The position numbers and the translations under genes were made by a program. Source: Nematostella vectensis (lineage: Eukaryota). Taken from it: 64,000 nt of DNA. Under the pieces are notes generated by a model. That model did no database searches. It was given only the letters and a program-made list of their open reading frames with translations, and was not told the origin of the DNA. Location of the stretch: contig NC_064039.1 in assembly GCF_932526225.1 (NCBI RefSeq), positions 6,257,459 through 6,321,458 on the forward strand. The letters run 5' to 3'. Within the stretch, counting starts at the first letter, position 1. Each line of letters opens with the position of its first letter. Below are positions 45,749 to 62,383 of this stretch, one piece after another.

Positions 45749-46300
45749 AGTAGTAGGGTTTTGGCGCAGCTGGCGCAACTTTTTGATCTCCCCAAATTTC
45801 ATTCCAAAAGTGGCGCAAAAGTCTCCGCACACCTCCGCCAAGCCTCGCGACCTGCGCATGCGCGAGTTTGCCAGAGATCTCTCGCACGACCAAGCCCACC
45901 TGTCAATCACTTTGTCACGTGACGGCCACGCCCACCTGTCAATCACTTTGTCACGTGACGGCCACGCCCACCTGTCAATCACTTTGTCACGTGATAGCCA
46001 CGCCCACCTGTCAATCATTTTGTAAAAAACCTGTCAATCACTTTGTCACGTGATGACCACGCCCACCTGTCAATCATTTTGTCAAAAACCTGTCAATCAC
46101 TTTGTCAAAAACCTGTCAATCACTTTGTCAAGAACCTGTCAATCACTTTGTCAAAAACCTGTCAATCACTTTGTCAAGAGCCTGTCAATCATTTTGTCAC
46201 GTGATAGCCAAGCCCACCTGTCAATCACTTTGTCACGTGCTGCACCTAGGGGGAGCCTGGGGGCTATTCTGGTCTAAAGACGTATGAGACCCTAGATAAA

Positions 46301-46561
46301 ATGACATTAAAGACGGAGGTGAAGATTAAAAACGGTGCGGCTACCGCCGGCGGTTGTTCGGTGCCGGAGGTGAACGTGAGTAACACTGCGGATGCGGGGC
46401 CTGAACACTGCTGTTGTAACGCTGATTACTATGAAGACTCAGAATACGGAAGCTTCGACCCCGTTGGGTTTGTGGCCGGAGCGGCGACAATTGTCCTTGG
46501 TGTTCTAGCAATGTTAGTCTCCATGCCACGGTATGGCGAAAAAAGATGGGTGAGATACTAG
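46301..46561 (+). CDS. small hypothetical membrane protein (86 aa, one TM) encoded inside the left-TIR-specific insertion
   Basis: ORF with upstream TCTAAAGACG promoter-like motif; TM FVAGAATIVLGVLAMLVSM. Confidence 0.3.
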   Translation: MTLKTEVKIKNGAATAGGCSVPEVNVSNTADAGPEHCCCNADYYEDSEYGSFDPVGFVAGAATIVLGVLAMLVSMPRYGEKRWVRY

Positions 46562-46703
46562 TCCACGGATGTGGTGCGGAGGCTTTAGACCGCACCGCCC
46601 CCACGCGGACCCCTTCGGAAGTCTTAGCAACCACACACATCACACCCAGAGGGAGCTCGAGGGGCTAGCCTCTCAGCTTCACATCTAAAAAAGCTTTTGA
46701 AAA

Positions 46704-46716
46704 GTGGTTTAAAGAC
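46704..46716 (+). promoter_or_regulatory. conserved promoter motif GTGGTTTAAAGAC 18 nt upstream of the TFIIB-like gene ATG
   Basis: identical motif and spacing at 47752-47764 (ankyrin), 48651-48663 (Cys-rich) and reverse-complement 61839-61852 (pPolB). Confidence 0.6.
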
Positions 46717-46733
46717 ATGAACAGTTTAATAAA

Positions 46734-47660
46734 ATGGAGGAACGAACAGTTGAACGTACGGCTGAAGATCGGTCACCACCACCATATAATATCCTCGGCG
46801 GACCGGTGCCTGAGATTAACGCCCCCACCCTCATGCCGGAATTTGCACTGTTTGACCGAGCCCTCACCGAATACGAGACTAGTAGAGCCTCCTTGGGAGA
46901 CGAGGATAGTAGTAACACCCTTTGCAATCATGGCGACCTAGTCACAGAGGACGGGGTCACTAGTTGCTTAGAGTGCGGGGAACAGATGCAGCGCGTGATC
47001 GCGCACGAAAGGGAATGGGGTTTTTACGGACATTCCGACGGCGAACGGTCTTCGGATCCAAGTCGGGTCCAGGTACGTAGGTCTGAGGATAGAAATATTG
47101 ACAAGGATGTGGAGAACATGGGTTTTAGCGGGGTAATTGTATCCAAAGCTAACGAGATATACACTCAGGTGACGAAAGGCCAGATTTTTCGCGGCGACCC
47201 ACGGAAGGCGGTCGTCTTTGCGTGTATCTACTACGCCTACAAGATGTCCGGTAAGTGTCAGACACCGAAAACCTTGATGGAAACTTTTGGATTGAGCAGG
47301 AAGAGTTGCCTTAAGGGTCTAAAAATCTTTAGTATTAACGTGCCTAAAGATTACTTACTACACGGAACGTCTCCCACCGTCGTGGACCACATTCACGATG
47401 TGATGGATAGATTCTCGGCGTCCCCCGCACAGAAGGGAGAGGTGGTCCAGCTCTACTACAGATCTAAGAACCGCTCGTCTGAGTTGAATCGCGCTCGCCC
47501 ACAATCCTTTGCGGTCGCTTTAACCTATTACTGGGTACGGCTAAAGGGGGTCGATATTACACTTAAAAAATTCTCCGAAAGAACGGGCGTCTCCGAGTTA
47601 ACCATCAGTAGGAAAGCGAGAGAAGTGGCCACAGTCCTGGGTACGCCTGGTGTGGTATGA
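46734..47660 (+). CDS. TFIIB-like transcription initiation factor (N-terminal Zn ribbon C-x-H-x15-C-x2-C, B-reader/linker, two cyclin-like repeats, C-terminal HTH)
   Basis: LCNHGDLVTEDGVTSCLECGEQ…EREWGFY parallels TFIIB [24 protein letters not shown]…GSEWRTF; core ANEIYTQV…AVVFACIYYAYKMSG…TLMETFGLSRKSCLKGLKIF parallels TFIIB cyclin repeat 1. Confidence 0.8.
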   Translation: MEERTVERTAEDRSPPPYNILGGPVPEINAPTLMPEFALFDRALTEYETSRASLGDEDSSNTLCNHGDLVTEDGVTSCLECGEQMQRVIAHEREWGFYGHSDGERSSDPSRVQVRRSEDRNIDKDVENMGFSGVIVSKANEIYTQVTKGQIFRGDPRKAVVFACIYYAYKMSGKCQTPKTLMETFGLSRKSCLKGLKIFSINVPKDYLLHGTSPTVVDHIHDVMDRFSASPAQKGEVVQLYYRSKNRSSELNRARPQSFAVALTYYWVRLKGVDITLKKFSERTGVSELTISRKAREVATVLGTPGVV

Positions 47661-47664
47661 TGTT

Positions 47665-47688
47665 TCCTGATTTCCAGAGAAATCAGGA
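47665..47688 (+). terminator. perfect 10-bp stem/4-nt loop hairpin 5 nt after the TFIIB-like stop codon (TCCTGATTTC-caga-GAAATCAGGA)
   Basis: seen in sequence; a similar hairpin follows the Cys-rich gene. Confidence 0.35.
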
Positions 47689-47764: not shown

Positions 47765-47781
47765 GTGGATGTAATAACAAA

Positions 47782-48606
47782 ATGGATATGCAAAGTGCTG
47801 GAAGTCTTACAAATCTCACCGTGGAGGATCAAGCCGCCACCTTAGCGAGGTGGGGAGCCGCAGACTTTGACGCCGTTATGGAGCGCGCGGCGTGGGAGGG
47901 GTGCGTCGAGACCGTGAGGTTGTGTAAGAGTTGGGGTGCGACGGATTTCGAAAAGCCGATGGTCAGGGCCGCAATGAACGGCCACACCGAGATCGTTAAG
48001 ATGTGTTGTGAGTCGGGCGCCTGTGACTTCGTGTATCCAGCGTCCATGGCCGCGAAAGGCGGGCACGTAGAGGTTTTGAAGGTGATGGGCGAGTATTGTG
48101 CCGACGGAGGAGAGGCCATGACCGAGGCCATGGGTGCTGCGGCGGCGGAAGGTCAGGTGGGGGTTGTTGAGTTGTTGATAGATCTAGGTGTCGATGTCGA
48201 TGTCGGTTGGGCCACCGCTGAGGCGGCGTACAATGGGCACGTTGAGGTTCTGAAGCTGCTGAGAGAAAACTTCTGGGAGTTTGACCCGGACTATGCTATA
48301 ACACCAGCCATCGAATCTCGCAACCTCGAGATTGTGAGGTTGTGCTTGGAGTGGGGCGCGACCGATCTCATTGTACATATGAACTACGCACGGTTTTGGC
48401 ATCTGCATAAGATTTTCGCGGTGCTACGTGCGGCGTGGGGGTGGAGTCTTGTGCATGAGGAGCTCCCGGAGAAGCTACACAAGGTGAGATTCCGTAGAAA
48501 GCTGGAGGACGAACTAATGCCAGTAGCTTGGCATCCGGACAGGTTTTGGGATTGGTGCATGGATGAGCAAGAGAAGGAAATGTTGGGAGAATGCTTCGCC
48601 AGGTAG
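47782..48606 (+). CDS. ankyrin-repeat protein (at least 5 ANK repeats: …AAMNGHTEIVKMCCESGA…, AAKGGHVEVLKVM, AAAEGQVGVVELLIDLGVDV, AAYNGHVEVLKLL, …NLEIVRLCLEWGA)
   Basis: repeated ~33-aa ANK consensus (A.-G----V--LL--GA). Confidence 0.8.
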   Translation: MDMQSAGSLTNLTVEDQAATLARWGAADFDAVMERAAWEGCVETVRLCKSWGATDFEKPMVRAAMNGHTEIVKMCCESGACDFVYPASMAAKGGHVEVLKVMGEYCADGGEAMTEAMGAAAAEGQVGVVELLIDLGVDVDVGWATAEAAYNGHVEVLKLLRENFWEFDPDYAITPAIESRNLEIVRLCLEWGATDLIVHMNYARFWHLHKIFAVLRAAWGWSLVHEELPEKLHKVRFRRKLEDELMPVAWHPDRFWDWCMDEQEKEMLGECFAR

Positions 48607-48650
48607 ACGCCGACCGGCTAGAAGGCGGGTATCGCGTGTTGGATTGAAAA

Positions 48651-48663
48651 GTGATTTAAGGAC
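48651..48663 (+). promoter_or_regulatory. promoter motif GTGATTTAAGGAC abutting the first ATG of the Cys-rich gene. The 60 bp around it duplicates the pPolB promoter/5' end.
   Basis: AAAGTGATTTAAGGACATGACCGGTTTGATAGAAATGGAGAAC versus AAAGTGGTTTAAAGACATGACTGGTTTGATAGAAATGGAGAAC (pPolB). Confidence 0.6.
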
Positions 48664-49011
48664 ATGACCGGTTTGATAGAAATGGAGAACCAAACGGTGA
48701 AAGACTCGAAAGTATCCCCCGTAAAGCGAACAACGGATTATAAGTGTCTTCATGGCAGAGTGAAATATTATTGCAAAGATTGTCACGGATCGCAAATCTG
48801 CCCTCACAACCGGAGAAAAACGCGGTGCAGAGAATGTAACGGCGGTAGCATTTGTGAGCACAGACGAGCAAGATATGTCTGTAAAGACTGCAAGGGGAAA
48901 GGGATGTGTGAACACAGCAAACAGAGACCCTTTTGTAAGTTATGCGGAGGGTCTCAAATATGCGAACACGATAGACAAAAGCACCATTGCAGAACGTGTA
49001 ACGGAAATTAA
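48664..49011 (+). CDS. basic Cys-rich protein with four tandem zinc-knuckle-like modules C-x2-C-x5/6-C-x-H-x6-C. Putative nucleic-acid-binding/core protein. N-terminal MTGLIEMEN shared with pPolB.
   Basis: CKDCHGSQICPHNRRKTRC / CRECNGGSICEHRRARYVC / CKDCKGKGMCEHSKQRPFC / CKLCGGSQICEHDRQKHHC; K/R/H-rich. Confidence 0.65.
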   Translation: MTGLIEMENQTVKDSKVSPVKRTTDYKCLHGRVKYYCKDCHGSQICPHNRRKTRCRECNGGSICEHRRARYVCKDCKGKGMCEHSKQRPFCKLCGGSQICEHDRQKHHCRTCNGN

Positions 49012-49026
49012 CATTGACCCACTCAG

Positions 49027-49208: not shown

Positions 49209-50735
49209 TTACCGGAATAGATACCAAGCTAAACCAGCCGTAAAGGCTGTGATCGTGACAAGGTTATTTTCGTGCTGCGTGTTCGTGGGTTTAATCACGT
49301 CCGGCTTTGGGTTAGTTTTCGCCTCCGGTTCCGGTTTGTGAGCCGTGACTGACTCGGTATGAGGTAACACAATCTTTGAATGACCCATATTATGTTTAGG
49401 GATCGTTTTTATCTCGTTATTTATCGGATTCAGCCCCAGTTTCATATCAGTGGTGGCTTTTTGTAACTTGTTATTATAGCCAGCGATCGAAGTGTTGTTA
49501 TTTATCACAAGATACGATGGACTTAACCAACAGCCGAGGGCGAAAGCTAGGTCTAGTTTTTGTCTCGCCTGTTGTAAAGCAAACTGATACCGTTGTATAC
49601 TTTTCGATATACTGTTTTCCACCACCGCGCTTTCGAAGAGTTTCGTGAAGACCTGTTTCGTTTCCTGAGCTGAACCGCTATCGCCGACGATTGACGACCG
49701 GGTCTGAACTTGCGCGCCTAGAATACAGTAGACAAAGGCTTCGATGCTCTGGTTTATCCTAGACAACCCAGCTTTGGTTAACCCCATTGATTTTTCCGGA
49801 AAGAACCACTCATACTGAAACCCAGTTCTAAGGTCTTTCAGGTACTCGATCTCAAAGTGATTCATGTGTTCGTGGTCGCTTTTGGCAGCGTCCCATTCGT
49901 CGTGTAATTGATCAATGGTGCCATAAGGCTTATACTTGTCGTTAGAAGATGACAAGCCGTGATAATCATAATTATAAACGTTCCCTAACCCGTGATTTAT
50001 CGGTCTGAGGAACCGGAAATCGTCACCAGTTCGGAATTCTGTTCTTAGTTTTTGGTAAGCCGCTTCGCTGTAAAAGTTTTTATTCCAACTAAAGAGCCTA
50101 TCTTTTGGAAGAGGGCATTGTAGCTCGTTTAATATTCGTCTGATAGTGAAAATGATGTGAAATCTGTAGAATGACCCCACTTGAGAGTCGTCAATCATGT
50201 CACGCGTCACACCACATCCAGCAGTCGCGCAAAACATAGCAAAATTTAAGGCTTGACTCCAATAACTGAGGTTTGGGGCGTCGAGCCACCTACTAGCCTC
50301 CTTTGCTGTTCTGAATACTAGCAAGCTGTCGGTGAATATGTCCCTAAAAACAAAGTGTGTCTTCACCTTTGGTGTTATAAAAACATTAAAAGAGACGTAA
50401 TTATTTCTCGTAGGGTTTTCGTCCCACGGCAATATCTTGTACTCTGCACGCGCGTCTAGTCTGTATTGTTTTGGGAACCCAAACAGTTGCTGGATCGTTT
50501 CCTTGTATGCTTGTGTGTCGTCGGCGACTAGAAAATCCTGGATATTCTCGGGTTTCCAGCTATTACCAGGGAAGTGATATAACGTTTTGACTAGATTCCC
50601 ATTCTTGTCGAATGGATCGTATTCGTCCCCATTGAAAACGAATTGCACATTGCCGTGCCCGTCGGCAGAGAACCTGAAGCGTGAGTAGTAGGGGTACCTT
50701 TTCACAAATTCTGTAAACTTCATCTTATATGACAT
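49209..50735 (-). CDS. hypothetical 508-aa protein with C-terminal transmembrane anchor (LVTITAFTAGLAWYLFR); no recognisable family
   Basis: long intact ORF with GATTTAAAAACATC promoter-like motif upstream; second in-frame ATG (M5) has the canonical spacing. Confidence 0.6.
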   Translation of the reverse strand: MSYKMKFTEFVKRYPYYSRFRFSADGHGNVQFVFNGDEYDPFDKNGNLVKTLYHFPGNSWKPENIQDFLVADDTQAYKETIQQLFGFPKQYRLDARAEYKILPWDENPTRNNYVSFNVFITPKVKTHFVFRDIFTDSLLVFRTAKEASRWLDAPNLSYWSQALNFAMFCATAGCGVTRDMIDDSQVGSFYRFHIIFTIRRILNELQCPLPKDRLFSWNKNFYSEAAYQKLRTEFRTGDDFRFLRPINHGLGNVYNYDYHGLSSSNDKYKPYGTIDQLHDEWDAAKSDHEHMNHFEIEYLKDLRTGFQYEWFFPEKSMGLTKAGLSRINQSIEAFVYCILGAQVQTRSSIVGDSGSAQETKQVFTKLFESAVVENSISKSIQRYQFALQQARQKLDLAFALGCWLSPSYLVINNNTSIAGYNNKLQKATTDMKLGLNPINNEIKTIPKHNMGHSKIVLPHTESVTAHKPEPEAKTNPKPDVIKPTNTQHENNLVTITAFTAGLAWYLFR

Positions 50736-50813: not shown

Positions 50814-51419
50814 TCACCGAGCGGGTCGACTCGCCAGGTCTTTCAAAATCTCTTCTCTTACTGTTTCCCTCAGCTTGGTAATGTTTACGTTTTTTTCGTC
50901 CTCTCTTACCGACTTTTGACGGATCTGGAGCTTTAGAGCCTCAAACTTGTCCACCTCGTTCAAGATTAAAGAGAACTCTTCGTCTGATATTTTGTTGTCT
51001 TTTAAAGCTTTAGAGACCAGGTCGCGTATGCTATTTACTTTTGCCTTTGCCATCGCCGCTGTTTGGTCGTGCTTGGAGACTTTTTGCGACAGCCGTTTAG
51101 AAACCGCCGCACAGCCTACAGACGTAAGACCGAAAACACCGGCCAAAGCACCCAACGGAACTCCGACGACGATACCAAAACCTGACAGAGAAGTCCCCAA
51201 ACCACTAGACCCAAGAATGACGGATAAGAGTCCTAAGACCACACTTAACTTTGAAAACACGCTCTGCCCTCGTTTATACTTTTTCCTCACGTTCTCGTAA
51301 TGTTTAACTTCTTGCTCCAAACTTCCCAAAACATCGTGGGTCTTTTGGAGTCTGAAGTTATCACCCGAGGGGCTGACCCCTCGGGGTACGTTCGGGTAGA
51401 TTGAGTTGTACTCTTCCAT
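50814..51419 (-). CDS. hypothetical membrane protein (201 aa, two glycine-zipper TM helices, C-terminal coiled coil)
   Basis: ORF plus upstream CACTTAAAGAAT motif. Confidence 0.55.
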   Translation of the reverse strand: MEEYNSIYPNVPRGVSPSGDNFRLQKTHDVLGSLEQEVKHYENVRKKYKRGQSVFSKLSVVLGLLSVILGSSGLGTSLSGFGIVVGVPLGALAGVFGLTSVGCAAVSKRLSQKVSKHDQTAAMAKAKVNSIRDLVSKALKDNKISDEEFSLILNEVDKFEALKLQIRQKSVREDEKNVNITKLRETVREEILKDLASRPAR

Positions 51420-51446: not shown

Positions 51447-52070
51447 TTAAGTGATTTCTAAAATTAGACGTATCGGGTAGAGACCGCGCTCTATTGTGTT
51501 TCCGTCACCACCCTTTATACTAAGACGGAGACTACTCACGTAACCGACTGATGTGGTGCTAACCCGTACCGGATCGCTTGGATTGAGGTATATCTTTCCT
51601 TCATCAAGCTCTACACTTGCTAGGATTTGTGAGGGCGCCCCTTGTTGGAGGGAGTCAGACGCGTTCACAAGATCGCAGTGGATAAAAATAGCCTCGTGAC
51701 CTATCATCTTTATCTCGTGGCGAGTGTTTGCTTCCAGCTCCCTGGTCTTGAGTCCTAACAGGCAGGCGAGCGGCTCATTCAACGCGACGTTCCGGTGAAC
51801 TTCGAGTGACGAGTCTCTAATAGAGACTGACTTTTCACCAAGACGCATACCCCCATCTATTTGACGTTTTAGCGTCTCGATCGTATACTGCCCCGCGGGG
51901 ATCCTAAGGATAATGTTCTCACCGTCGGAGACCGTTCCCTCGCTTGAGAGACTGTTACAACGATTATGAAACGCACATCCTCGCAGCGCGATAAACCGCG
52001 GCTTTTCAATAGGTTGTTCTAAATAGACAGTAAAGTCACCAACGTTTCCTTCAATGTAGAGTAATACCAT
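51447..52070 (-). CDS. hypothetical beta-rich 207-aa protein; candidate single-jelly-roll minor capsid (penton) protein
   Basis: size, position in the virion-gene block and alternating hydrophobic pattern; upstream GATTTAAAAGGAGAC motif. No motif-level recognition. Confidence 0.45.
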   Translation of the reverse strand: MVLLYIEGNVGDFTVYLEQPIEKPRFIALRGCAFHNRCNSLSSEGTVSDGENIILRIPAGQYTIETLKRQIDGGMRLGEKSVSIRDSSLEVHRNVALNEPLACLLGLKTRELEANTRHEIKMIGHEAIFIHCDLVNASDSLQQGAPSQILASVELDEGKIYLNPSDPVRVSTTSVGYVSSLRLSIKGGDGNTIERGLYPIRLILEIT

Positions 52071-52073: not shown

Positions 52074-53096
52074 TTATGATTTCCGTCTCCTTTTAAATCG
52101 TTCTACGGAATACAGGACGACAGCGACGATGAGAAGCCATGCGTTTTTAGCTAAAAAGCCAACAACTTCACCTGCCGTTCTAAATATGAAACTAGCTATA
52201 GCACCAACCATTCCTGGGAGTATTTCTCCTAATTTTTTGCCTATTGTTTTCAGACCATTTCCAACACCTTTTGCAACACTAGTCAGCCCAGCTTTCAGAT
52301 TAGAGACAATAACACCGATAACAACGCCCACAGCGGTAACGACAGCAGCGACTGTAAATCCGTATTTCTTAAAAATCGCTTTGACACGATCTTTCAACGA
52401 CATTCTCTCTTCAAGATTTTCTCTCTCCAATTGATTCTCTTCCAAAGTCTCATCTATGACAGAATTTCTTTCGCTGAGCTCTTCATTTTTACGATCTATA
52501 GCTCTTAGTCTTTCTTGGTTAGTTGTTTCACTTCGTTCCTCATTATTTTTTCTCATTTGCTCGGTGTTTCTCTCTTCTTCTTCTCTGAGTGTATTACCTG
52601 TAGCGTCTAGTTCATCGAGTTGAATCTGAATTTGCTTGTACTTTCCGGATCTGATTTTGTCGTCAACACTCTTCCGCACCGTTCTATCCTCATTATACAA
52701 CCTTTCTGGTCTAGTCCAACCACCTTTTCTCGCAGAATAGAAGGAAATGAATTGTTTTCCTCTCTCATCCGTTGAAATCTGAACTAGATTTTCATCAAGA
52801 TCTGGATATTTCGATAACAAAAGGTCTACCCTAAGTGTGTCCGTTGAAGGAGAACCTCCCATATTCTGTAACTCCATGTACTCGGGGACAGCCCTCCCGG
52901 GGTTTCGTGTTTTCCATAAGTCAGTCAACCTCCTACTCACATAGCTTGCACCTCTACCAAATCTGTTTGAAATCCTTTCATTCCATGATTCTCTTCCCTC
53001 ACCATCGTTTGGAATAAGAGAGTCATAATCTTCGTCTACAGTAGTATTCAAATCTTCTCTACCTTCTTCTGTTGTGGGATCAAAATCTATATCCAT
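52074..53096 (-). CDS. hypothetical 340-aa protein: acidic N-terminus, E/R-rich coiled coil, C-terminal multi-TM region
   Basis: ORF plus upstream GACTTAAAGATTT motif. Confidence 0.55.
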   Translation of the reverse strand: MDIDFDPTTEEGREDLNTTVDEDYDSLIPNDGEGRESWNERISNRFGRGASYVSRRLTDLWKTRNPGRAVPEYMELQNMGGSPSTDTLRVDLLLSKYPDLDENLVQISTDERGKQFISFYSARKGGWTRPERLYNEDRTVRKSVDDKIRSGKYKQIQIQLDELDATGNTLREEEERNTEQMRKNNEERSETTNQERLRAIDRKNEELSERNSVIDETLEENQLERENLEERMSLKDRVKAIFKKYGFTVAAVVTAVGVVIGVIVSNLKAGLTSVAKGVGNGLKTIGKKLGEILPGMVGAIASFIFRTAGEVVGFLAKNAWLLIVAVVLYSVERFKRRRKS

Positions 53097-53140: not shown

Positions 53141-53557
53141 TCATATCCACCTACTCGCTACATAGCCAAGGGCTAACATTCCACCTCCAACGTACGCCAT
53201 CTCTCCCATCTTTTGGTTGCTACTTGGTCTGTAGTAATCTGAGAGCTCAGGCTCTTTCAAATCAAAATCTGGATGTGTTTGAGCGTATAGTTTGAAAGCC
53301 TCATCCGTCTCTTTATCGTTCTCATCCGCACGAACTTTATCGTTGTATTGTTCAGTCAACCAATCCTGGTATTCCTGTCTTTTTTTCTGCCAATCACCCA
53401 TTGCTTGTTGATACTTTTCAAGCGCTTTATCGTGTCTTATTTTTTCTTTATCAACATGAGTAGCGTCAGAAGACAAGTATCTCGCTAGGTAACTCCCTCC
53501 GACAAACGCCGTCGCATTAATAAAAGCCCCACCAATCATAAATGCTATACTCGCCAT
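53141..53557 (-). CDS. hypothetical membrane protein (138 aa; N- and C-terminal TM segments)
   Basis: ORF plus upstream CGACTTAAAGATC motif 19 nt from ATG. Confidence 0.5.
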   Translation of the reverse strand: MASIAFMIGGAFINATAFVGGSYLARYLSSDATHVDKEKIRHDKALEKYQQAMGDWQKKRQEYQDWLTEQYNDKVRADENDKETDEAFKLYAQTHPDFDLKEPELSDYYRPSSNQKMGEMAYVGGGMLALGYVASRWI

Positions 53558-53589: not shown

Positions 53590-53814
53590 CTACAGCGGTT
53601 TTGGCAAAATCTTTTGTGTTTCCAGATAATCTTTCAGATACATACTACCGGACAGGACAGCAACCCATTTAGCGTAGTTTGTAACACTTGACGAAGGGTC
53701 GCTGATGAATGACTCTTTCATAGCCTTTTTAGCAACATAACCCACGCCGGCGGCTAATCCGATGATGACTGCTGAGTCGGTGATCGTTTTCACAAGTTTG
53801 TTTTCAGTTGACAT
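53590..53814 (-). CDS. hypothetical small membrane protein (74 aa)
   Basis: ORF plus upstream GATTTAAAGATTATC motif, preceded by the 30-bp palindromic element. Confidence 0.45.
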   Translation of the reverse strand: MSTENKLVKTITDSAVIIGLAAGVGYVAKKAMKESFISDPSSSVTNYAKWVAVLSGSMYLKDYLETQKILPKPL

Positions 53815-53849: not shown

Positions 53850-54311
53850 TCACAACATTCCTATTTTTGGCGTCGCGTTCGGGAGGCTAGCCCCTCGAGC
53901 TCCCCCTAGGTGGGAGGTGGGTCTCCCAAGAGTTTCGGCCTCGTTGACGTTAATCTTAGACGGCTCGCCCTCTTTCTTTTTGTAAAAACGCATATACATA
54001 TCCAATGCGGTGAGCCCTATTCCAACTAGAGCCAGTACAGTTGTAAACGATAGCTCTGGAATCCAAGCGTCCGAGAGGCTATCCCCTCGAGCTCCCTCTT
54101 GGTGGGGTGTCTCTGCTCGTGCAGCGTCTTCTGAACTCGCCTCCGCCTCGCGTTTCATCTCCCTAGCAAGTGCTTCTCTACACCTCCTATTATATTCGGC
54201 AACTCTCTTACCAGAAGCGACTTTTATAGGATCTTTCTCCTTAGCGGCACTCTTCTTCCTGGGGGGAGGGTCCTTTGTGATTTGCTCAACCTCTTGATTT
54301 TCGTCAGACAT
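53850..54311 (-). CDS. hypothetical 153-aa protein, basic N-terminus plus one TM
   Basis: ORF plus upstream GATTTAAAGATTC motif. Confidence 0.5.
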   Translation of the reverse strand: MSDENQEVEQITKDPPPRKKSAAKEKDPIKVASGKRVAEYNRRCREALAREMKREAEASSEDAARAETPHQEGARGDSLSDAWIPELSFTTVLALVGIGLTALDMYMRFYKKKEGEPSKINVNEAETLGRPTSHLGGARGASLPNATPKIGML

Positions 54312-54453: not shown

Positions 54454-54981
54454 TCAGGTGTGCTCAAGAGTTTGCTCAGTTGTGCTTGAAACTTCTTGAA
54501 GTTTGTTGGAAGTCTCCTGTGAAGGTGTTAGTTTAACATGCTTAGCGACCCGAAAGATGGCACTAGCAAGTGCTACCATCCTTCCTCCCTTCAATACCAA
54601 GAGACCTGCAAAGTTTGACAATTCGCGTTTAACCAACTCGTCGTTCTGTAAGTCTTTGCTAAGCGCTTCGGTGTCATCTACAGGAACCACGTAGGAAATG
54701 ACTTGAGACACCACTTGAAGTGCTGATTCTACTAATCCATCAGTAACTTGTTTGCCTAAGACAGTCTGGTAGCGAACAAAGTACTTTTCGACGTCTTTCG
54801 CCGGGAGCTTCTTGATGTCCCCTAAACTCATGTCCACACCAAGAAATTCCTTCGTAGTCCCAAGAGATGCGAGAATAGCCAGCGATTCTCGTTTGACTTC
54901 AACATCGTCTTCGAGAGGCTCACCCTTCGAGCTCCCCTTAGACTTAGGCTCCTCTTCCATATAATCCTCAATGCTTGCCAT
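54454..54981 (-). CDS. hypothetical 175-aa acidic protein (likely start MASIEDYMEEE…; the six-frame ORF extends to 55047)
   Basis: AAGTGGTTTAAAAACATC motif lies 25 nt upstream of the internal ATG at 54981, and the 30-bp palindrome abuts it. Confidence 0.5.
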   Translation of the reverse strand: MASIEDYMEEEPKSKGSSKGEPLEDDVEVKRESLAILASLGTTKEFLGVDMSLGDIKKLPAKDVEKYFVRYQTVLGKQVTDGLVESALQVVSQVISYVVPVDDTEALSKDLQNDELVKRELSNFAGLLVLKGGRMVALASAIFRVAKHVKLTPSQETSNKLQEVSSTTEQTLEHT

Positions 54982-55043
54982 CTTATTTTGTAAGTAGACC
55001 AAGATGTTTTTAAACCACTTCGAGGGGTCAGCCCCTCGAGCTC

Positions 55044-55670
55044 TCACCGCGTGGCAGGAATCTCCAAATAACGTTGGAATGGATGTCGTAGGCAGAAACA
55101 GAGTCTGGAATACTTTTCAGTTTTCAGCAGTTCTACAAACTTTTTACGAGTCTCAACGTCTAAGTCACCCCCATAATCTTCAAACAGTGTTTTGGTACCG
55201 ATTTGAGATGGATTATGGAATGTAACCACACAGGCGACGTTATCACGGAAGGGCTTTGCTATGGATGTTAATTGTTGCGTCAATACCCACACTGATAATC
55301 CTTCGTGTCTCCCTGAGAACGCTAAATTGATAAACTTGTTCGAGCGTTGCTTTAGATCTTTCGATACAGCACAGTCATCCAAAACGAGTAACGTATTTGT
55401 ACCAGAAAATAGCACCGCACAATCTGTTAGTAACTCGTTAATCTCATCGGTGTTACTAGCATCCGGCGATAATACCAAGAAACGTTTATCTCCGTGAGCA
55501 AATCTACGATAGGACTTGTTTTTCGCATAAGTCGGACAAATCAACACAATGTATTCAAACACATGCCGGAACGGCCCTCGGAGCTGTTCCGTGAGGTACT
55601 TTGTCTTCCCACAATTAGTAGGTCCTGTGATAATACAATGAAAAGGAACTTTTTCCCGTAATTCTTCCAT
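55044..55670 (-). CDS. FtsK/HerA-superfamily (A32-like) genome-packaging ATPase; Walker A GPTNCGKT, Walker B LLVLDD. Likely start MEELREK (the ORF call 55044..55691 starts on a non-ATG codon).
   Basis: P-loop and hhhhDD motifs, ~210 aa, location next to capsid gene as in Polintons/virophages. Confidence 0.85.
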   Translation of the reverse strand: MEELREKVPFHCIITGPTNCGKTKYLTEQLRGPFRHVFEYIVLICPTYAKNKSYRRFAHGDKRFLVLSPDASNTDEINELLTDCAVLFSGTNTLLVLDDCAVSKDLKQRSNKFINLAFSGRHEGLSVWVLTQQLTSIAKPFRDNVACVVTFHNPSQIGTKTLFEDYGGDLDVETRKKFVELLKTEKYSRLCFCLRHPFQRYLEIPATR

Positions 55671-55698
55671 TCTTTTTGTATTATCACACAAGTCCTTT

Positions 55699-56937
55699 TT
55701 AATACATGATTGCTCTCAAATTCGAGTTCATAACCTCCATCAACGCGTCGGCTACTACAAACATGTAGCAGGTGATGTTTCCCGTTCCTCCAACTTTTCG
55801 TTTCATCTCGAGTTTTACTCCGTCTCGCGTGTTGTTCAAGACCAGACCTCCTCCGTGAATGCTGTTATCTGGGTGTGCCCTCAAGTCGACCCACAGAGCA
55901 AACTTGTTATTAGCGTAAAAATCCTTTTGCTTGACACCCTCTCTACCGAAACGTTTCTTTACCGACTCCCAGAGGTCCGGCGGTGTCATCCCCTTGGAGT
56001 AGAGACGGTTTGGCATGCCATCCACATTAATGTTGATCGATGTGATGCTTGGATTGACAAACTTTTCGGAATCCCTTGCTCCTCCGGTGTAGCTCTCTGT
56101 GAACAGGCACAATATCCCTGTCATTGACCTCCTCGGCAGATTAATGTGCTCGTTTATGACACCATCATTAGGTTTGGAGATGGTGAACGTTTTGTGGAGA
56201 ATGACGTTCTCGTAAAAGAATCCTCTACCAACCTGATAAGCCGACAACGCCTCACGAGCTAAGTATTCACTTGAGATGCAAGCATATTCCAACTCGAGGT
56301 TTGTGATTGTGTACGTTGGAGTCTTGACCGTGTCAGCATAAACAACGACGTCGGAAACTGGGGCTAGAGTAATTTCAAAGATTAGCGGATGAGGTAACGC
56401 CTTTGGATAAAAGACCCCATGCTCGCCGAGAATAGGATGGTCGAGTGGAATGCAGTACTTGGTGTTGTGAACTGCTGCAAGAGCTACTTCCTTAGCATCT
56501 GATGTCGCTTTGTCACCTGCATTTGTCCTGAGCTTCCTCATGTTCTCAGAGGAGATACCTTGTTTTATTCTATCCTCACGATCTTCAGCTTGTAAGTATA
56601 AGTCGTGATAGGTTTGGAAGAGATCGTATCTTTGAGTATCCTGTAGTGTTTCTCCACCGAAAAGAATCTTGAGCCTTGACACTAGGTTCCGGCCAACGTT
56701 GTTGACGAGAGTATTATTCGCGTGTCCTGTGACGTTTAAGTCAAATAGTAAGGATACACTACCTGGAACAATCACTACATTTTCAGCAAGTTTTGGAATA
56801 TTTATATAGAGGGTTTCTCCAGGACTTGCCGATGAGGGATTGAATGTAATCCGATTCAGCGACGATTCCGCTTTCAGGCCGAAGGGTTCCCGTGGGATCC
56901 TGTTTGGGTTAATTTTTTCTGATATCGCTTGTGCCAT
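55699..56937 (-). CDS. putative double-jelly-roll major capsid protein (412 aa)
   Basis: beta-rich 45-kDa protein immediately upstream of the packaging ATPase, the conserved MCP position in Polintons; no direct motif proof. Confidence 0.55.
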   Translation of the reverse strand: MAQAISEKINPNRIPREPFGLKAESSLNRITFNPSSASPGETLYINIPKLAENVVIVPGSVSLLFDLNVTGHANNTLVNNVGRNLVSRLKILFGGETLQDTQRYDLFQTYHDLYLQAEDREDRIKQGISSENMRKLRTNAGDKATSDAKEVALAAVHNTKYCIPLDHPILGEHGVFYPKALPHPLIFEITLAPVSDVVVYADTVKTPTYTITNLELEYACISSEYLAREALSAYQVGRGFFYENVILHKTFTISKPNDGVINEHINLPRRSMTGILCLFTESYTGGARDSEKFVNPSITSININVDGMPNRLYSKGMTPPDLWESVKKRFGREGVKQKDFYANNKFALWVDLRAHPDNSIHGGGLVLNNTRDGVKLEMKRKVGGTGNITCYMFVVADALMEVMNSNLRAIMY

Positions 56938-56970: not shown

Positions 56971-57963
56971 ATGAGTAACGAAAGCAGGTTATCAAAAATA
57001 TACTATTCCACCGATGGATACTGGAAAGGGTATTCAGCTATTTATAAGTTAGCTAGTGTCGCTAAAGTCAGTGAAGCCGAGGCTAAGAGGTGGCTTGAAA
57101 AACAGGCGTTGTGGCAGATCTATCTCCCAGCTCCAAAGTATGTCCCCAGACCGCATTGGACTGTGAATAAACCTAATCAGATTCACCAAGCCGATCTGTT
57201 GTTTATGCCCCACGATAACGTAGGCAGAAAAACCTACCGTTACGCGTTGGTCGTGATTGATATTGCCTCGAGATATAAAGATGCAGAAGCACTGACTACC
57301 AAGGATTCGAGTGGAATTGCTAAAGGGTTTGAAAAGATATACTCCAGAAAACTTAAATGGCCTCATACGGTGATTGTCGATCCGGGGACAGAATTTAGGG
57401 GAGAGGTAACGAAGATTATGAAAAAGAAGGGGGTTACCATCCAGCGAAGCGAAGCTGGGAACCATCGCGCACAGGCTTTTGTCGAACGCGCCAATAGAAC
57501 ACTGGCGGAGAGGTTGTTTTCTTATCAGTATGCTCAAGAAATGATTAGCGATGATCGGTCCAGAGTTTGGGTGAAACGATTGCCAGATGTTTTGAAGACT
57601 CTGAATAGTCAACCCATAAGAATTACTGGCAAAGAGCCTGTAAAATCTATTGGTTTGAAAGAGGTTGATATTGACCCTCCAACGTATAAGCGGCCTGTTG
57701 GACTTGACGAAGTTAGACTACCACCAGGGGTTAGAGTTAGATATCTATTAGCTCCTGGAGAAGAGGAAGGAGGTGAACGCAGACGAGCCACAGACCCCAT
57801 TTGGAGTTTGAAAGTGTTTGATCTATCACGCAGTGTTGTTTCGGTTGGGCAGCCTGTGTTGTACTACCTCTCCGAAGGCGCTCCAAGGAGGTCGTTCGTT
57901 AGGGAAGAACTTCAAGTCGTCCCTGAAGATACTGAGCCACCACCTAATAGCGTTCTGAAATGA
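56971..57963 (+). CDS. retroviral-type (rve) DDE integrase with C-terminal extension
   Basis: catalytic triad context HQADLLF (D) … VIVDPGTEF (D) … NHRAQAFVERANRTL (E); ~35-aa D-E spacing. Confidence 0.9.
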   Translation: MSNESRLSKIYYSTDGYWKGYSAIYKLASVAKVSEAEAKRWLEKQALWQIYLPAPKYVPRPHWTVNKPNQIHQADLLFMPHDNVGRKTYRYALVVIDIASRYKDAEALTTKDSSGIAKGFEKIYSRKLKWPHTVIVDPGTEFRGEVTKIMKKKGVTIQRSEAGNHRAQAFVERANRTLAERLFSYQYAQEMISDDRSRVWVKRLPDVLKTLNSQPIRITGKEPVKSIGLKEVDIDPPTYKRPVGLDEVRLPPGVRVRYLLAPGEEEGGERRRATDPIWSLKVFDLSRSVVSVGQPVLYYLSEGAPRRSFVREELQVVPEDTEPPPNSVLK

Positions 57964-60900
57964 CCGTGAGCGAAGGTGTGAATACCATCATCACAGATGA
58001 CCCGTTTATCATCCTCATGAGATAGAGCGACCTTGTTCACCGTTTCAGTGTAAACATCATGCTTATGACTTCTGATGACATTCATAAGTCTCATCTGAGG
58101 TTTCTTACCAAATAAGCAATCCTTGTAGTCATCGAAACCGATGCTCTTCTTGACGACTGCTCTCTTGACGCCCTTGCATTTCTTTTCTTCTTTACCTTCA
58201 TCCATCTTGTACGAGTAAAGTTTGGCCCTCAGTCCTACAAATTCTGTGATTTGCTGGCCCCCAGCCTCATCTTTAAACATTCCGATGACTTTCTTGTTCA
58301 CACCCACCTCAATACCAGATGGGTGACCCTTCGGAAAGTTGCTGGTGTCGAACATGGACCTCACATCCCCGCTGATGTCCTCGTAAAAGTCTTTCGTCTC
58401 GATCTCATACATCAGGCTGTCAGTATCAGTGAATAAGAGCTTTGCATCCTCACCGTACTTAGGCTTGACGAAGTTGTAGTGGAAATCGTACATGAGCGTC
58501 TTACTCAGGTCCAGAATGGACATACCCAAGTAGACAGGCTTGTTGAAGATCAGCTTTGTCTTCTTCATGTGGATGGCGGCTAGATTCTCGCAAAAGATGG
58601 TGCGATGTTGATAGTTCGGCTTTGATATGAGCTTCTTGGCCTGCTTCTCGTCCGTCACCAACCGAATGTCCACCCTGTTCCTAATGTTCTCCATAGTCTT
58701 ACCAAAGACGGAGTTGTTCATTAACTTGAAAAAATCTTTCTCAAAATCGTTTGTCGCCTTGGCTCTCAGATCGGTGTTCAAGTCAATGTAGGGCTCCAGC
58801 CAAGCAGACTCCTCAAAAGTGACACCCCTGTGAATCTTGGTGACTTTTAGCCCAAAACTCACATAAAGTCTCAGAGTCTCATGGTGGATAACGTACTTTG
58901 TCTTGTCGTTAAGGTTGGGGACCAACTTGTCCACATTGCCTAGCCCGATAGATTCCGGGGCTAGTGGGTAATCGTTGTGTAAGTCATGTAGGTGGTGAGG
59001 GTACTCCAAGTCAACCTCCAGAATGCATGGGCGGTCTCTCCAACCTGACAGCTCTTGGTCACCCATCCACCTGAAACCGTGAGTCGGTAAAGGGTTGCTC
59101 ATCGCCCAGCCATACAAATTGTTAGCATCAAGGTAGGTGATATATTTTGTGGGTAGGTCAGGGTCATACTCCTTCATGTAAGGGTTATTTGCCTCCCCAT
59201 GTCTGTTGCTTATCATGGAGACACCCCCACGGATGCCCTTCTCAATCATGAGCAACATGTCATAGTCCGTTAGAAGCTCTAGCCTCACCTTGGTGGTCTT
59301 CAACGCTGCATCCCAAGCCAACCCTGGCGCTGTGTAGTACCAAGCGGGGTCCAGACCGTAATTCTTGAGACAAACGTCCCTAAAGTTCTCGAAAACGTCA
59401 GCTAAAAGCAACACATCCGACTCTAGGTACAGATTGTGGTAATCCCTCATGGTCCCCATCCCAAAGGCCTCCCACACTCTCCGCGCGTGCAGGTGATCCT
59501 CCTCCGATATGTCGGTGTCGTTGAGTTTGGAGTGGAACGCCTCTCTCTGTGGGAGCTGTGTTGCGTCGAGCTTGCTAAAGCCGTCGAACCAGTCGTAAGG
59601 GAAAACACCCTTCCTCAACAACAGCTGAAGCTCCTCCCCCTCATAGTACTCCGCCAGGTTTTTGAAGCACTCCCTTGACATATTACCCACTAGACTGTCG
59701 AGACTGGCCGACATAAACCTGAAACTGTCGATAAATCTGATATCACGTTTAACATCAATCTTGTTGCCCTCCTTGTTCGTGAAACTGTCGACTACAATCT
59801 GTTTTGTGAAAGAAATATACTTTTCCTCGTTATTAGGTATACAGTTTATTTTACCTTCCGATGTACCAAGGTTCTTGATAAATAGATGGCTGTCGTACCC
59901 AGACAGATTGTGAAAGATAACAGGAAAGAACTTTGGAATTTTGTGATCTAAGTTGCATGCGTTGTGAGCAGCACCTCTGTACTTCCCTGTAAGGTGGCAA
60001 TGGTCCAAAACCTTGTCTTCCCCTAATTCACCCTCACAGATGTGGCAGTGAGTGGCGTCGTTATAGGCGATTTTGTCCTTCGGAGTCATTTTCACCTTCT
60101 TAGGGAACCTGAACTTATCATAAATTTTCTTAATGTCTGACTCCAAAGACTCTACGAAAAGCTGTGGGATATCTTCGTCTGGAGATTCAGCTGTGTATCG
60201 TACAAGCTCGGATGGGGATATATCTCCGTCGAAACACTTGATGAGATAGCAGAAACCAGACGGTTTGTGTTTCTGGTATTGCTTAGTGAAGCTTTTACTC
60301 TCATCTGGGGAGCATGTGTCTATATTCTCTGTGAAGCTCTCAAAGTCGGCGTAGACAACAAAGGGGACACGCATTTTTCTGTTGTAGTTTTTGAATTTAA
60401 TGTGGGGTAGATTTCCATCCTTATCTATCTTAGGCATCTCTATTCCAACCGCTTCATGATTGCCGCAGCATTCAGAATGTTTTTCTAATGATTGTTTGCA
60501 CCGAAACGAGTTCAGACATCTACAGCATAAAAAACGAGTATGATGAAACTCATCAATTTGAGTAGATACTAATCTCATCATATTCTTTATCCAGCAGTAA
60601 TGATTCGTCTCATCATCCGAGATGAGAAGTAAGTTGATTGCATTATCTGGATCCTTCTCACTGATTCTCAATGGATATATTTTGGTTTCGTATCCAAACA
60701 CATTAACCGTATACTGGTTCTGTTTCTCGAACTTGTCAATCTGTTTTAGTGAGACGGGGAACTCTATCCCTGACCAGTCGAATTTCTCAGAGCTCTCTAT
60801 CATTTGTTTACTGAACCTTTGAGGATCTTTCTCCCTAGGATACACAGCAGAGGTTACTGCCCACTTGAAACATTCGTGATCATTCTCGTTCTTAACATTG

Positions 60901-61838
60901 ATGATCGCCTTCTTAGACGCTAGTTTCAGCGGCAGCGGAATATAGGAAGACCCAGAAAGCGGTTCAAAGGGATCTATGTTGATGTCAAAGTATTCCACTT
61001 GGTCAAACTGCCATCCGGAGCCTTGCTTCTGGAACAGCTCAACTAATCCGAGTAAATAATTTGTCATCGTATCGAACAAATCAGAGAGATCAGTCGACTC
61101 TGTCACAATCTCGGGCTTCTCTGTATGAAAATATCCCAGTTCTTCTTCGATCTGAGCTGTAGCCGGATCCTCTTTTATAAACCCGCAAGTAAAGATAAAC
61201 TTCACTTTGATAGGCTTTTTTTGTCGACTGATGAGCTCTAAGACTTTCGGTTTGATTCTGGCGATGAATGTCTTGGGGTCGTAACCTCTCTGCCCGGCTA
61301 TTCCGTGGGTTTTAAGATACCCCTTCAACGCCGTCTGTTGTTCCTTGGGTGTGAAGCGATCTTCCACCTCCTCGTGTAGACGCTTAATCCTCTCCTTCAG
61401 ACGTTCGACCCGTTTATCTGCAGCCTCTTTGACGGTCTTTTTGACGGGCTCGGGGACATAAGATAGTATCCAATCCGCAAACTTGTCTAACTCGCTCTTG
61501 ATCAAGTTGGCCGCCCTGTTTGCAAAATGCTTGAGTGATTGGACGCGGGAACTCCGTGGGGGTTGGGAGGGTTTTAGAATAGGGACATTAATCTCAGGTA
61601 TCGGGCCGTCGAGAATACTCTCCGACGTGTTGGACGGGGTAATGCGGGGTGGTCGTGGCAGCCCTTTGACAAGTTTGGGTAAAGGAACCCGTCGGGGTGG
61701 TGGTGGTGGTGACGTGCTGGTCAGCGCCCCGACGAGCTCGTCTCTCCGCATCCAGTAATATCTTGGGATACCCCGCTCCTTGGCGAGGGCTTTCAGATCT
61801 TTCACCTTCAGGTTCTCCATTTCTATCAAACCAGTCAT
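57912..61838 (-). CDS. protein-primed family B DNA polymerase (1308 aa) with N-terminal SAP motif, proline-rich linker, TPR1-like N-terminal region, exonuclease and polymerase domains
   Basis: Pol motifs YLDANNLYGWAMS (motif A), KLMNNSVFGKTMEN (motif B), LLFTDTDSLMYEI (motif C); SAP LKVKDLKALAKERGIPRYYWMRRDELVGAL. Confidence 0.95.
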   Translation of the reverse strand: MTGLIEMENLKVKDLKALAKERGIPRYYWMRRDELVGALTSTSPPPPPRRVPLPKLVKGLPRPPRITPSNTSESILDGPIPEINVPILKPSQPPRSSRVQSLKHFANRAANLIKSELDKFADWILSYVPEPVKKTVKEAADKRVERLKERIKRLHEEVEDRFTPKEQQTALKGYLKTHGIAGQRGYDPKTFIARIKPKVLELISRQKKPIKVKFIFTCGFIKEDPATAQIEEELGYFHTEKPEIVTESTDLSDLFDTMTNYLLGLVELFQKQGSGWQFDQVEYFDINIDPFEPLSGSSYIPLPLKLASKKAIINVKNENDHECFKWAVTSAVYPREKDPQRFSKQMIESSEKFDWSGIEFPVSLKQIDKFEKQNQYTVNVFGYETKIYPLRISEKDPDNAINLLLISDDETNHYCWIKNMMRLVSTQIDEFHHTRFLCCRCLNSFRCKQSLEKHSECCGNHEAVGIEMPKIDKDGNLPHIKFKNYNRKMRVPFVVYADFESFTENIDTCSPDESKSFTKQYQKHKPSGFCYLIKCFDGDISPSELVRYTAESPDEDIPQLFVESLESDIKKIYDKFRFPKKVKMTPKDKIAYNDATHCHICEGELGEDKVLDHCHLTGKYRGAAHNACNLDHKIPKFFPVIFHNLSGYDSHLFIKNLGTSEGKINCIPNNEEKYISFTKQIVVDSFTNKEGNKIDVKRDIRFIDSFRFMSASLDSLVGNMSRECFKNLAEYYEGEELQLLLRKGVFPYDWFDGFSKLDATQLPQREAFHSKLNDTDISEEDHLHARRVWEAFGMGTMRDYHNLYLESDVLLLADVFENFRDVCLKNYGLDPAWYYTAPGLAWDAALKTTKVRLELLTDYDMLLMIEKGIRGGVSMISNRHGEANNPYMKEYDPDLPTKYITYLDANNLYGWAMSNPLPTHGFRWMGDQELSGWRDRPCILEVDLEYPHHLHDLHNDYPLAPESIGLGNVDKLVPNLNDKTKYVIHHETLRLYVSFGLKVTKIHRGVTFEESAWLEPYIDLNTDLRAKATNDFEKDFFKLMNNSVFGKTMENIRNRVDIRLVTDEKQAKKLISKPNYQHRTIFCENLAAIHMKKTKLIFNKPVYLGMSILDLSKTLMYDFHYNFVKPKYGEDAKLLFTDTDSLMYEIETKDFYEDISGDVRSMFDTSNFPKGHPSGIEVGVNKKVIGMFKDEAGGQQITEFVGLRAKLYSYKMDEGKEEKKCKGVKRAVVKKSIGFDDYKDCLFGKKPQMRLMNVIRSHKHDVYTETVNKVALSHEDDKRVICDDGIHTFAHGHFRTLLGGGSVSSGTT

Positions 61839-62383
61839 GTCTTTAAACCACTTTTCAAAAGCTTTTTTAGATGTGAAGCTTAGAGGCTAGCCTCCCGAGC
61901 TCCCCCTAGGTGCGACACGTGACAAAGTGATTGACAGGTGGGCTTGACTATCACGTGACAAAGTGATTGACAGGTTCTTGACAAAATGATTGACAGGTTC
62001 TTGACAAAATGATTGACAGGTTTTTTACAAAGTGATTGACAGGTGGGCGTGGCTATCACATGACAAAGTGATTGACAGGTTTTTGACAAAGTGATTGACA
62101 GGTGGGCTTGGCCGTCACGTGACAAAGTGATTGACAGGTTTTTTACAAAGTGATTGACAGGTGGGCTTGGCTATCACGTGACAAAGTGATTGACAGGTGG
62201 GCTTGGCTATCACGTGACAAAATGATTGACAGGTGGGCTTGGTCGTGCGAGAGATCTCTGGCAAACTCGCGCATGCGCAGGTCGCGAGGCTTGGCGGAGG
62301 TGTGCGGAGACTTTTGCGCCACTTTTGGAATGAAATTTGGGGAGATCAAAAAGTTGCGCCAGCTGCGCCAAAACCCTACTACT
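61839..62383. repeat. right TIR (545 bp) with ~12 TGATTGACAG-containing subrepeats and 4-5 CACGTG boxes
   Basis: reverse complement of left TIR. Confidence 0.9.

Follow-up and report, generated by a model that had tools for sequence, protein, structure and literature searches.

Polintons have been known from the starlet sea anemone Nematostella vectensis ever since this family was first defined. Among Polinton capsids, that of Polinton 3 of this species was found to be nearest to the capsid of PgVV (Krupovic et al., 2014, PMC4028283), and two sea-anemone Polinton capsids were later placed inside the clade of the Polinton-like viruses (PLVs), with the suggestion that their bearers are chimeras with a Polinton polymerase and integrase (Yutin et al., 2015, PMC4642659). 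In stony corals, polintoviruses have been reported in numbers from hundreds to thousands, and their genes are expressed (PMC11131425). Here we analyse a Polinton element of N. vectensis that occupies positions 45749-62383 (16,635 bp, with inverted repeats at both ends) of a 64,000-nucleotide stretch of contig NC_064039.1 (assembly GCF_932526225.1, positions 6,257,459 to 6,321,458), which is called the window below. We consider it very probable that this element is a structurally complete integrated polintovirus genome of the Polinton/Maverick type, recent enough that nothing in it has been broken. The existence of such an element and its general type are not new: it is not a textbook group-1 Maverick, sea-anemone Polintons of this combination were already published in 2014-2015, and it may be a copy of a named Repbase family.

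Compared by description, the Repbase Polintons of N. vectensis (e.g. Polinton-3_NV) resemble the element in host, protein-primed polymerase, rve integrase and PLV-type capsid, and our literature search found no mention of a TFIIB, a promoter motif or an endonuclease VII insert in them. The group-1 Mavericks/adintoviruses (Polintoviricetes) share with it the polymerase, the rve integrase, the A32 ATPase, the double jelly-roll capsid, terminal inverted repeats (TIRs), the terminal sequence and the arrangement in two gene modules, but they have an adenain/Ulp1 protease and 6-bp target duplications, whereas no protease was detected in the element and its duplication reads 5 bp. A recent preprint likewise found a cysteine protease in most group-1 Maverick-Polintons and placed a few animal-derived ATPases among the PLVs (2026, bioRxiv 10.64898/2026.06.19.733378). 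PLVs such as PgVV/Gezel (Aquintoviricetes) are alike in size (~16 kb), in a giant-virus-like capsid protein of ~410 amino acids (aa), in the A32 ATPase, in TIRs and in usually having no protease. However, most of them carry a helicase-primase or other replication genes together with tyrosine recombinases and live in protist hosts, in contrast to the polymerase and rve integrase of this element, and from animals they have been reported only as a few ATPases in Octocorallia, Hydrozoa and Bivalvia. The mavirus-type virophages, finally, also integrate into the genome of their host and have in common with the element a polymerase, an rve integrase, a double jelly-roll capsid and the use of a single promoter motif, but mavirus possesses a cysteine protease and its polymerase is without an exonuclease domain (PMC11161782), unlike the element.

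Replication and virion genes

Sixteen uninterrupted open reading frames (ORFs) take up 88% of the element (93% if the interior alone is considered), and their lengths agree with those of homologues elsewhere, which bears out the claim of a first-pass annotation, made from the letters alone, that all ORFs are open. That annotation had also named a polymerase, an rve integrase, an ATPase and a major capsid protein, and each of these components was verified. The right module lies on the minus strand except for the integrase and comprises the polymerase, the integrase, the capsid protein, the ATPase and eight ORFs without known domains, most of which have predicted membrane segments; the left module, read from the plus strand, starts with a small ORF in an insertion of the left arm and continues with the genes for a TFIIB homologue, an ankyrin-repeat and a cysteine-rich protein. 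The order polymerase-integrase-capsid-ATPase, together with the next five to six ORFs, recurs in related loci from other samples.

The polymerase ORF (57912-61838, minus strand, 1308 aa, probable start at M7, 61820) is laid out as a SAP/Rho_N domain, an N-terminal region of ~480 aa, ExoI, an endonuclease VII/HNH insert (aa 587-630), ExoII, ExoIII, motifs A, B and C, and KxY. When aa 480-830 alone were compared with PF03175 ("DNA polymerase type B, organellar and viral"), a match was obtained with E 1.1e-6 and 28.3 bits, the cut-off of this family being 25.8 bits. All catalytic motifs are present in the canonical order: ExoI (VVYADFES, aa 494), ExoII (FHNLSGYDSH, aa 642), ExoIII (YLESDV, aa 804), motif A (YLDANNLYG, aa 902), motif B (KLMNNSVFGKT, aa 1038), motif C (LFTDTDSL, aa 1135) and KxY (RAKLYSY, aa 1204). 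A profile comparison with hhalign aligned motifs A-C with those of the phi29 DNA polymerase, albeit weakly (E 0.024). The PF03175 match, the ordered motifs and the phi29 alignment are what a Polinton/Maverick polymerase should display, and we accept the 1308-aa protein as the predicted DNA polymerase of the element.

Protein priming by this polymerase is inferred from three features, namely the polymerase family, the inverted repeats and the N-terminal extension of 480 aa. In Polintons such an extension consists of a terminal-protein domain and an OTU-like domain (PMC11161782). A linear copy of the element would be replicated from its termini by protein-primed synthesis, the primer would be provided by the ~480-aa N-terminal region, and the repeated terminal trinucleotide could enable initiation with slide-back or jump-back. 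The closest homologues of the polymerase are two proteins of N. vectensis (89% and 80% identical) and one of Exaiptasia (75%). The endonuclease VII/HNH insert (59949-60080 of the window) is located between ExoI and ExoII and is found in most of the 120 closest homologues, including those from N. vectensis and Exaiptasia. At one related locus (L004, 3-4310) the capsid protein is 95% and the integrase 83% identical to those of the element, whereas the polymerase is just 22% identical and is devoid of the insert; therefore, the replication gene has been exchanged within one capsid lineage.

The integrase (56971-57963, plus strand) belongs to the rve DDE family: the match to PF00665 (9.9e-8) scores 32.6 bits, which is exactly the cut-off, and the catalytic residues D75, D137 and E172 with their 35-residue spacing form the DD35E triad expected of a Polinton integrase. 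This enzyme would join the ends of the element to staggered cuts in the host DNA.

The major capsid protein (55699-56937, minus strand, 412 aa) was assigned by AlphaFold2 and Foldseek. The model, built from an alignment of 71 homologues, reached a predicted local distance difference test score (pLDDT) of 86.6 and a predicted template modelling score of 0.85, and its fold is the double jelly-roll that a Polinton capsid is predicted to have. Among solved structures it matched Vp54 of PBCV-1 and the capsid of Singapore grouper iridovirus (SGIV) with E ~1e-16 and that of mavirus with 9e-13; among the predicted viral structures of BFVD the best matches were capsids of phycodnaviruses and other giant viruses, and an adintovirus capsid came ninth. 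A homology search returned 755 related proteins, many of them on megabase-scale contigs, and a scan of the element ORFs gave a weak PF16903 match. Directly beside the capsid gene lies an A32/FtsK-type packaging ATPase (55044-55691, minus strand, PF04665 3.7e-11, probable ATG 55670) with the Walker A motif GPTNCGKT and a Walker B motif, as in Polinton ATPases. The capsid protein, the ATPase and the small membrane proteins would together build a membrane-containing icosahedral particle. Separately, one cluster of related capsids (P0066, 90% identity, found at locus L008) has 4980 member sequences, a size which suggests that a related element has been massively amplified in one or more of the sequenced organisms.

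Termini, insertion site and age

The sequence of the element starts with AGTAGTAGGG and ends with CCCTACTACT, and its termini are thus 5'-(AGT)2...(ACT)2-3', in line with the AG...CT ends reported at first pass. The motif 5'-(AGT)2//(ACT)2-3' is the commonest one at the ends of vertebrate Mavericks (PMC8097293), and long TIRs with such ends are characteristic of Polintons/Mavericks. The left TIR (45749-46260, plus strand) begins with AGTAGT and consists of ~137 nt of unique terminal sequence followed by 12 subrepeat cores CCTGTCAATCAYTTTGT; the right TIR (61880-62383, minus strand) ends with ACTACT and has 11 cores. The longest ungapped arms (45749-45987 and 62145-62383, 239 nt) are 97% complementary, and the outermost 161 nt of both TIRs are 100% identical, slightly more than the ~150 bp noted before. 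The count of differences between the arms, which the first-pass annotation had proposed as a check, is therefore zero in this outer part, but not further in: a gapped alignment of 45749-46760 with the reverse complement of 61791-62383 has 537 matches and 31 mismatches, the left arm contains one additional 36-nt subrepeat, the right arm contains 13 additional nt in two small indels, and an insertion of 385 nt (46251-46650) is present in the left arm only. Inward of this insertion a block of ~85 nt is again common to both arms and reaches the first start codon on either side.

The subrepeat cores follow each other at 23 or 36 nt. A scan of the whole window found them confined to the two arms, and they were not found in any other retrieved locus, including the related loci of other species. 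Within the subrepeats (45886-46240 and 61916-62246) the reverse complement of the core reads CACGTGACAAAGTGATTGACAGG and includes an E-box (CACGTG) and TGATTGACAG, which we take to be the PBX-MEIS consensus. The cores could be candidate binding sites for a host protein or a protein of the element.

Both ends of the element are flanked by CCCTC (45744-45748 on the left and 62384-62388 on the right), as read from the sequence and supported by the reconstruction of the empty site. The complete direct repeat at the edges is TCCCTCA (45743-45749 on the left), and the terminal A and T of the element belong to both the repeat and the element; therefore, the duplication may be 5-7 bp long. Ends of the form AG...CT give 5 bp, ends of the form GT...AC give 7 bp, and 6 bp can be obtained with asymmetric ends only. 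We prefer the 5-bp reading because it leaves the canonical (AGT)2//(ACT)2 Maverick motif at the ends. The flanking CCCTC copies proposed at first pass are thus real, but a length of 5 bp presupposes canonical ends, and the supposed departure from the usual 6-bp duplication of Polintons, which had been singled out as worth noting, is not a secure oddity: the comparison involves one insertion whose sequence permits 5 to 7 bp. Independent junctions were sought by scanning JGI metagenomes and IMG/VR with terminal 21-mers, which gave no match, and by exact-protein look-ups, in which the TFIIB, the N. vectensis polymerase paralogue P0241 and the UMP synthase gave no record and the capsid cluster P0066 led to a single locus; no second insertion with both ends was recovered from these scans and look-ups.

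The pre-insertion site could be rebuilt, as had been claimed. When the flanks are joined and one CCCTC is omitted, they align across the junction with the host repeat unit upstream: the rebuilt site reads GCCTTTCCCTCAAGCATCTTAGAGAGC and the neighbouring unit reads GCCTACCCCGTAGGCATCTCAAAGAGC. The string quoted in the first-pass annotation is indeed that of the rebuilt site, but it is not the own sequence of the neighbouring unit. The intact neighbouring unit spans 44779-45325, and a second unit, beginning at 45326, is interrupted by the element and continues from 62389. The ~550-bp tandem repeat described as the target is therefore real (~547 bp), though it consists of just two units, which are 82-94% identical with a period of 515-547 bp. 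Since homology to the host unit is restored upon removal of the element, a real insertion is strongly argued for, rather than a chimeric assembly. It could be argued that a free or contaminating viral genome was joined to host sequence during assembly, as the surroundings are rich in repeats, and inverted repeats of such length, with arrays inside them, are difficult for an assembler. We regard this as highly improbable: the same CCCTC stands at both junctions, a chimeric join would not give back the homology of the host repeat when the element is taken out, and close relatives of the element are located inside megabase-scale contigs elsewhere.

The age of the insertion is weakly bounded. The first-pass annotation called the element very young, which is plausible, but the absence of differences in 2 x 161 nt fits any divergence up to about 1%, and the inner repeat arrays of the TIRs differ by ~5%, possibly from before the insertion. 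Near-identical sequence was found on two short contigs of other datasets, with 98.4% and 99.6% identity to the element. The differences in their capsid genes are synonymous in 10 out of 10 and 8 out of 8 cases, respectively, while the neighbouring genes on the first of these contigs (98.4%) show 24 synonymous and 12 non-synonymous codon changes. Since all capsid differences are synonymous, they point to recent purifying selection on this gene, that is, selection for a working capsid in the recent history of the lineage.

A small RNA entry overlaps the integrase gene. The sequence at 57195-57262 (plus strand) matches the Rfam precursor mir-9460 with 102.9 bits and agrees with the consensus at 68 of 68 positions, and the stability of the hairpin is no better than that of shuffled sequence (z = -0.76). 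Entries of miRBase with 94xx numbers are presumably those of N. vectensis. This overlap suggests that the microRNA entry is a small-RNA-producing transposon fragment, and mir-9460 probably represents small RNAs of this Polinton family that were catalogued as a microRNA. Our literature search on mir-9460 retrieved no papers, and its overlap with an integrase is apparently unreported.

It could be that the element is an inert endogenous relic, which is intact only through its recent insertion, while the lineage has been silenced by small RNAs or methylation and makes neither particles nor new copies. The annotated microRNA precursor in the integrase fits small RNAs arising from the element, a single copy is visible in the window, where no further copy or fragment was found, and the nearest annotated polymerase paralogues of N. 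vectensis reach no more than 89% and 80% identity. Nor have virions been observed for any animal Polinton (PMC8097293; bioRxiv 10.64898/2026.06.19.733378). On the other hand, none of the 16 ORFs is interrupted, the duplication is perfect, as are the ends of the repeats, and the synonymous-only capsid differences require recent selection. We therefore hold the silenced relic to be a somewhat unlikely explanation, although it is the most serious competitor of a complete polintovirus genome. As an intact copy in a tractable laboratory animal, this locus is a concrete candidate in which particle formation or movement of an animal Polinton could be demonstrated.

Several observations weigh against the reading as a complete polintovirus genome. 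With the full-length polymerase as query, neither a polymerase family of Pfam (E <= 10) nor a PDB sequence was matched, and a tblastn search of phage genomes returned the endonuclease VII only. The AlphaFold2 model of polymerase aa 109-1308 has a pLDDT of 43.6, and the fold search with this model gave nothing significant, just faint matches to OTU domains (E 0.3-1.3). The duplication is not the canonical 6 bp. With one copy visible, and with the nearest annotated polymerases as distant as stated above, no recent burst is shown, and activity of the element would be inferred from its intactness alone. The assignment of a 207-aa ORF (51447-52070, minus strand) as a candidate minor capsid (penton) protein, which was made from position and size only, is a guess: the ORF has no match in Pfam, PHROGs or the PDB and no tblastn match in the related loci. 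Finally, no Ulp1/adenain or other peptidase was detected in any ORF (Pfam at E <= 10, PHROGs), and with 93% of the interior coding there is no unused coding space for one. A 197-aa conserved protein (54454-55047, minus strand, probable ATG 54981) is free of cysteine and is therefore not the missing protease. The adenain/Ulp1 protease of group-1 Mavericks/adintoviruses is thus not found here, and by sequence a very divergent protease would still be possible. The element does possess the polymerase and integrase by which Polintons were originally defined, as well as the hallmark genes of a virion. Given a capsid module of giant-virus/PLV-like character and no protease, the element is to be placed among the sea-anemone "chimeric" Polintons and not among the vertebrate-type group-1 Mavericks.

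TFIIB and the TTAAAGA motif

The first large gene of the left module (46734-47660, plus strand, 308 aa, start possibly at M34, 46833) encodes a transcription factor of the TFIIB family (PF00382 1.5e-8). The protein aligns with human TFIIB (E 1.8e-5) along the zinc ribbon, the DPSRV linker and the two cyclin repeats, so the zinc ribbon, linker and two cyclin-fold repeats that characterize the family are all present. A profile of 47 relatives matches human TFIIB with 7.5e-15 and archaeal TFB with 5e-12. The family comprises 1046 clusters at E <= 0.001, and 44 of the 47 sampled members match PF00382.

The nearest relatives of this TFIIB are all found on giant-virus-like contigs (28-35% guanine-cytosine, GC) and none on Polintons; therefore, the gene of the element is a giant-virus-type TFIIB. 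A relative with 66% identity is encoded on a gene-dense metagenome contig of 322.6 kb with 31% GC, and another of the same class on a 42.8-kb contig together with a protein kinase, a patatin, an NIF phosphatase and a glycosyltransferase. The relative with 49-52% identity is located on a 39.6-kb contig with the RNA polymerase subunit Rpb10 and a minor-capsid domain of the PBCV-type P9, and the one with 40% identity on a 44-kb contig (L012) with KilA-N, T5orf172 and dUTPase, where about half of the genes have the mimivirid early promoter AAAATTGA upstream. An NIF phosphatase gene adjoins that of TFIIB in three of the loci L016 (10001-10825), L013, L010 and L012. The TFIIB of giant viruses (Nucleocytoviricota) has the same domains, but the element is 16.6 kb long and without an RNA polymerase of its own. 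No TFIIB was found in the other inspected element loci, most of which are incomplete on that side. A literature search for TFIIB and Polintons showed TFIIB to be treated for giant viruses only, and as a cargo of Polintons it is apparently unreported. The identity of 66% attests to gene flow between giant viruses and a Polinton that resides in an animal.

The genes of the element are preceded by a common motif. TTAAAGA occurs 12 times in the element, and 9 of these 12 occurrences are on the coding strand 8-35 nt before the start of an ORF (binomial P = 7.5e-14). The occurrences (TTAAAGA or TTTAAAGA) start at 46708, 47756, 48655, 50751, 51450, 52097, 53129, 53584, 53849, 54344, 56971 and 61847. 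If variants with one changed base are allowed, the motif stands before 14 of the 16 ORFs, mostly 26-35 nt from the ATG. An otherwise unexplained occurrence led us to an ORF that had not been listed, a 74-aa membrane protein (53590-53814, minus strand) with TTTAAAGA 35 nt upstream. TTAAAGA also precedes genes in the related loci L005-L007, and a variant of it does so in L008. Two forms can be distinguished: GAAAAGTGGTTTAAAGAC before the polymerase, TFIIB, ankyrin and cysteine-rich genes, and TTAAAGAT with T-rich sequence before the structural genes. These two forms may mark two temporal expression classes.

In front of three genes the motif is part of a common leader of ~70-85 nt. This leader/promoter block ends with GAAAAGTGGTTTAAAGAC at 46651-46733 (plus strand), recurs at 61839-61904 (minus strand) before the polymerase and recurs partly at 48644-48712. 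The polymerase and cysteine-rich ORFs have the same first eight codons (MTGLIEME), and homologues begin at the second methionine. With a motif ~26-35 nt before nearly every start and a TFIIB of its own, the element appears to organise its transcription itself, and the self-encoded TFIIB and the single promoter motif provide a testable handle on the transcription of such elements. A TTAAAGA motif used throughout an element is apparently unreported.

A promoter shared with a giant virus was also considered. On four giant-virus-like contigs, those with the closest TFIIB, TTAAAGA is not enriched upstream of genes, and such a shared promoter was rejected.

The origin of the TFIIB raises the question of a lifestyle similar to that of virophages and PLVs. 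The element would lie dormant in the anemone genome and be expressed and replicated only upon giant-virus infection of the animal or of a cell resident in it, with the promoter and TFIIB recruiting the transcription machinery of the giant virus, as in the system of mavirus, CroV and Cafeteria. The promoter of mavirus matches that of its giant virus. A single motif at a fixed short distance before almost every gene is indeed a feature of virophages, the nearest TFIIB relatives (66%, 50%, 49% and 39% identical) reside on large contigs, dense in genes and low in GC, with Rpb10, P9, NIF phosphatase, KilA-N and, in the case of L012, AAAATTGA, and a maturation protease was not detected in the element. 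Additionally, the capsids of sea-anemone Polintons group with PgVV, which is a giant-virus-dependent PLV (PMC4028283, PMC4642659). However, TTAAAGA was not seen before the genes of any of the four giant-virus-like contigs, the element brings along a polymerase of its own together with a retroviral-type integrase and is located in an animal chromosome, and one horizontally acquired gene is insufficient for dependence. No capsid relative was found among the viral contigs of IMG/VR, no giant virus of Nematostella was found, and to our knowledge none has been described. Thus it is improbable that the element depends on a giant virus. A further step would be to regard it as an animal counterpart of the mavirus system, a germline hybrid of PLV and Polinton that is switched on by, and perhaps defends against, an undiscovered giant virus of a cnidarian or an associated protist, its TFIIB steering the RNA polymerase of the invader or of the host to the TTAAAGA promoters; this we likewise hold to be improbable.

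Other genes and the host flank

Apart from TFIIB, the left module contains three ORFs. A small ORF of 86 aa with a hydrophobic C-terminus (46301-46561, plus strand) lies inside the 385-nt insertion of the left arm and has TCTAAAGA 28 nt upstream. It is followed beyond the TFIIB gene by an accessory ankyrin-repeat protein of 274 aa (47782-48606, plus strand, PF12796 7.9e-12) and by a cysteine-rich protein of 115 aa (48664-49011, plus strand) with repeated CxxC...CxH units, which is conserved in L006 and L008 and matches no family.

The minus-strand ORFs between this module and the ATPase include several proteins with predicted membrane segments. A conserved protein of 508 aa (49209-50735) has a C-terminal membrane anchor, no match in Pfam or the PDB, and homologues with 37% identity in L006 and L008; it is a candidate virion or membrane protein. 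A protein of 340 aa (52074-53096) combines a coiled coil with a glycine-zipper membrane region and has a weak match to a tape-measure PHROG (1.4e-4). Three further products are conserved in the family, namely the membrane proteins of 201 aa (50814-51419) and 138 aa (53141-53557) and a protein of 153 aa with one membrane helix (53850-54311).

The host DNA around the element is itself repetitive. A different repeat of 161 bp is found downstream of the two-unit host repeat, and long minisatellite arrays are unusually abundant in the flank, their periods being 32-62 bp and their copy numbers as high as 45 (24636-25597, 29141-29662, 31872-32442, 36531-37484 and 39458-40896). Two host ORFs (8509-9006 and 12945-13397), which by eye resemble CUB domains, are identical in their first ~143 residues, which indicates a recent segmental duplication of ~4.4 kb. 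Between these ORFs and the minisatellites, an intronless ORF of 477 aa (17231-18664) encodes a UMP synthase that is 100% identical over its full length to an N. vectensis protein.

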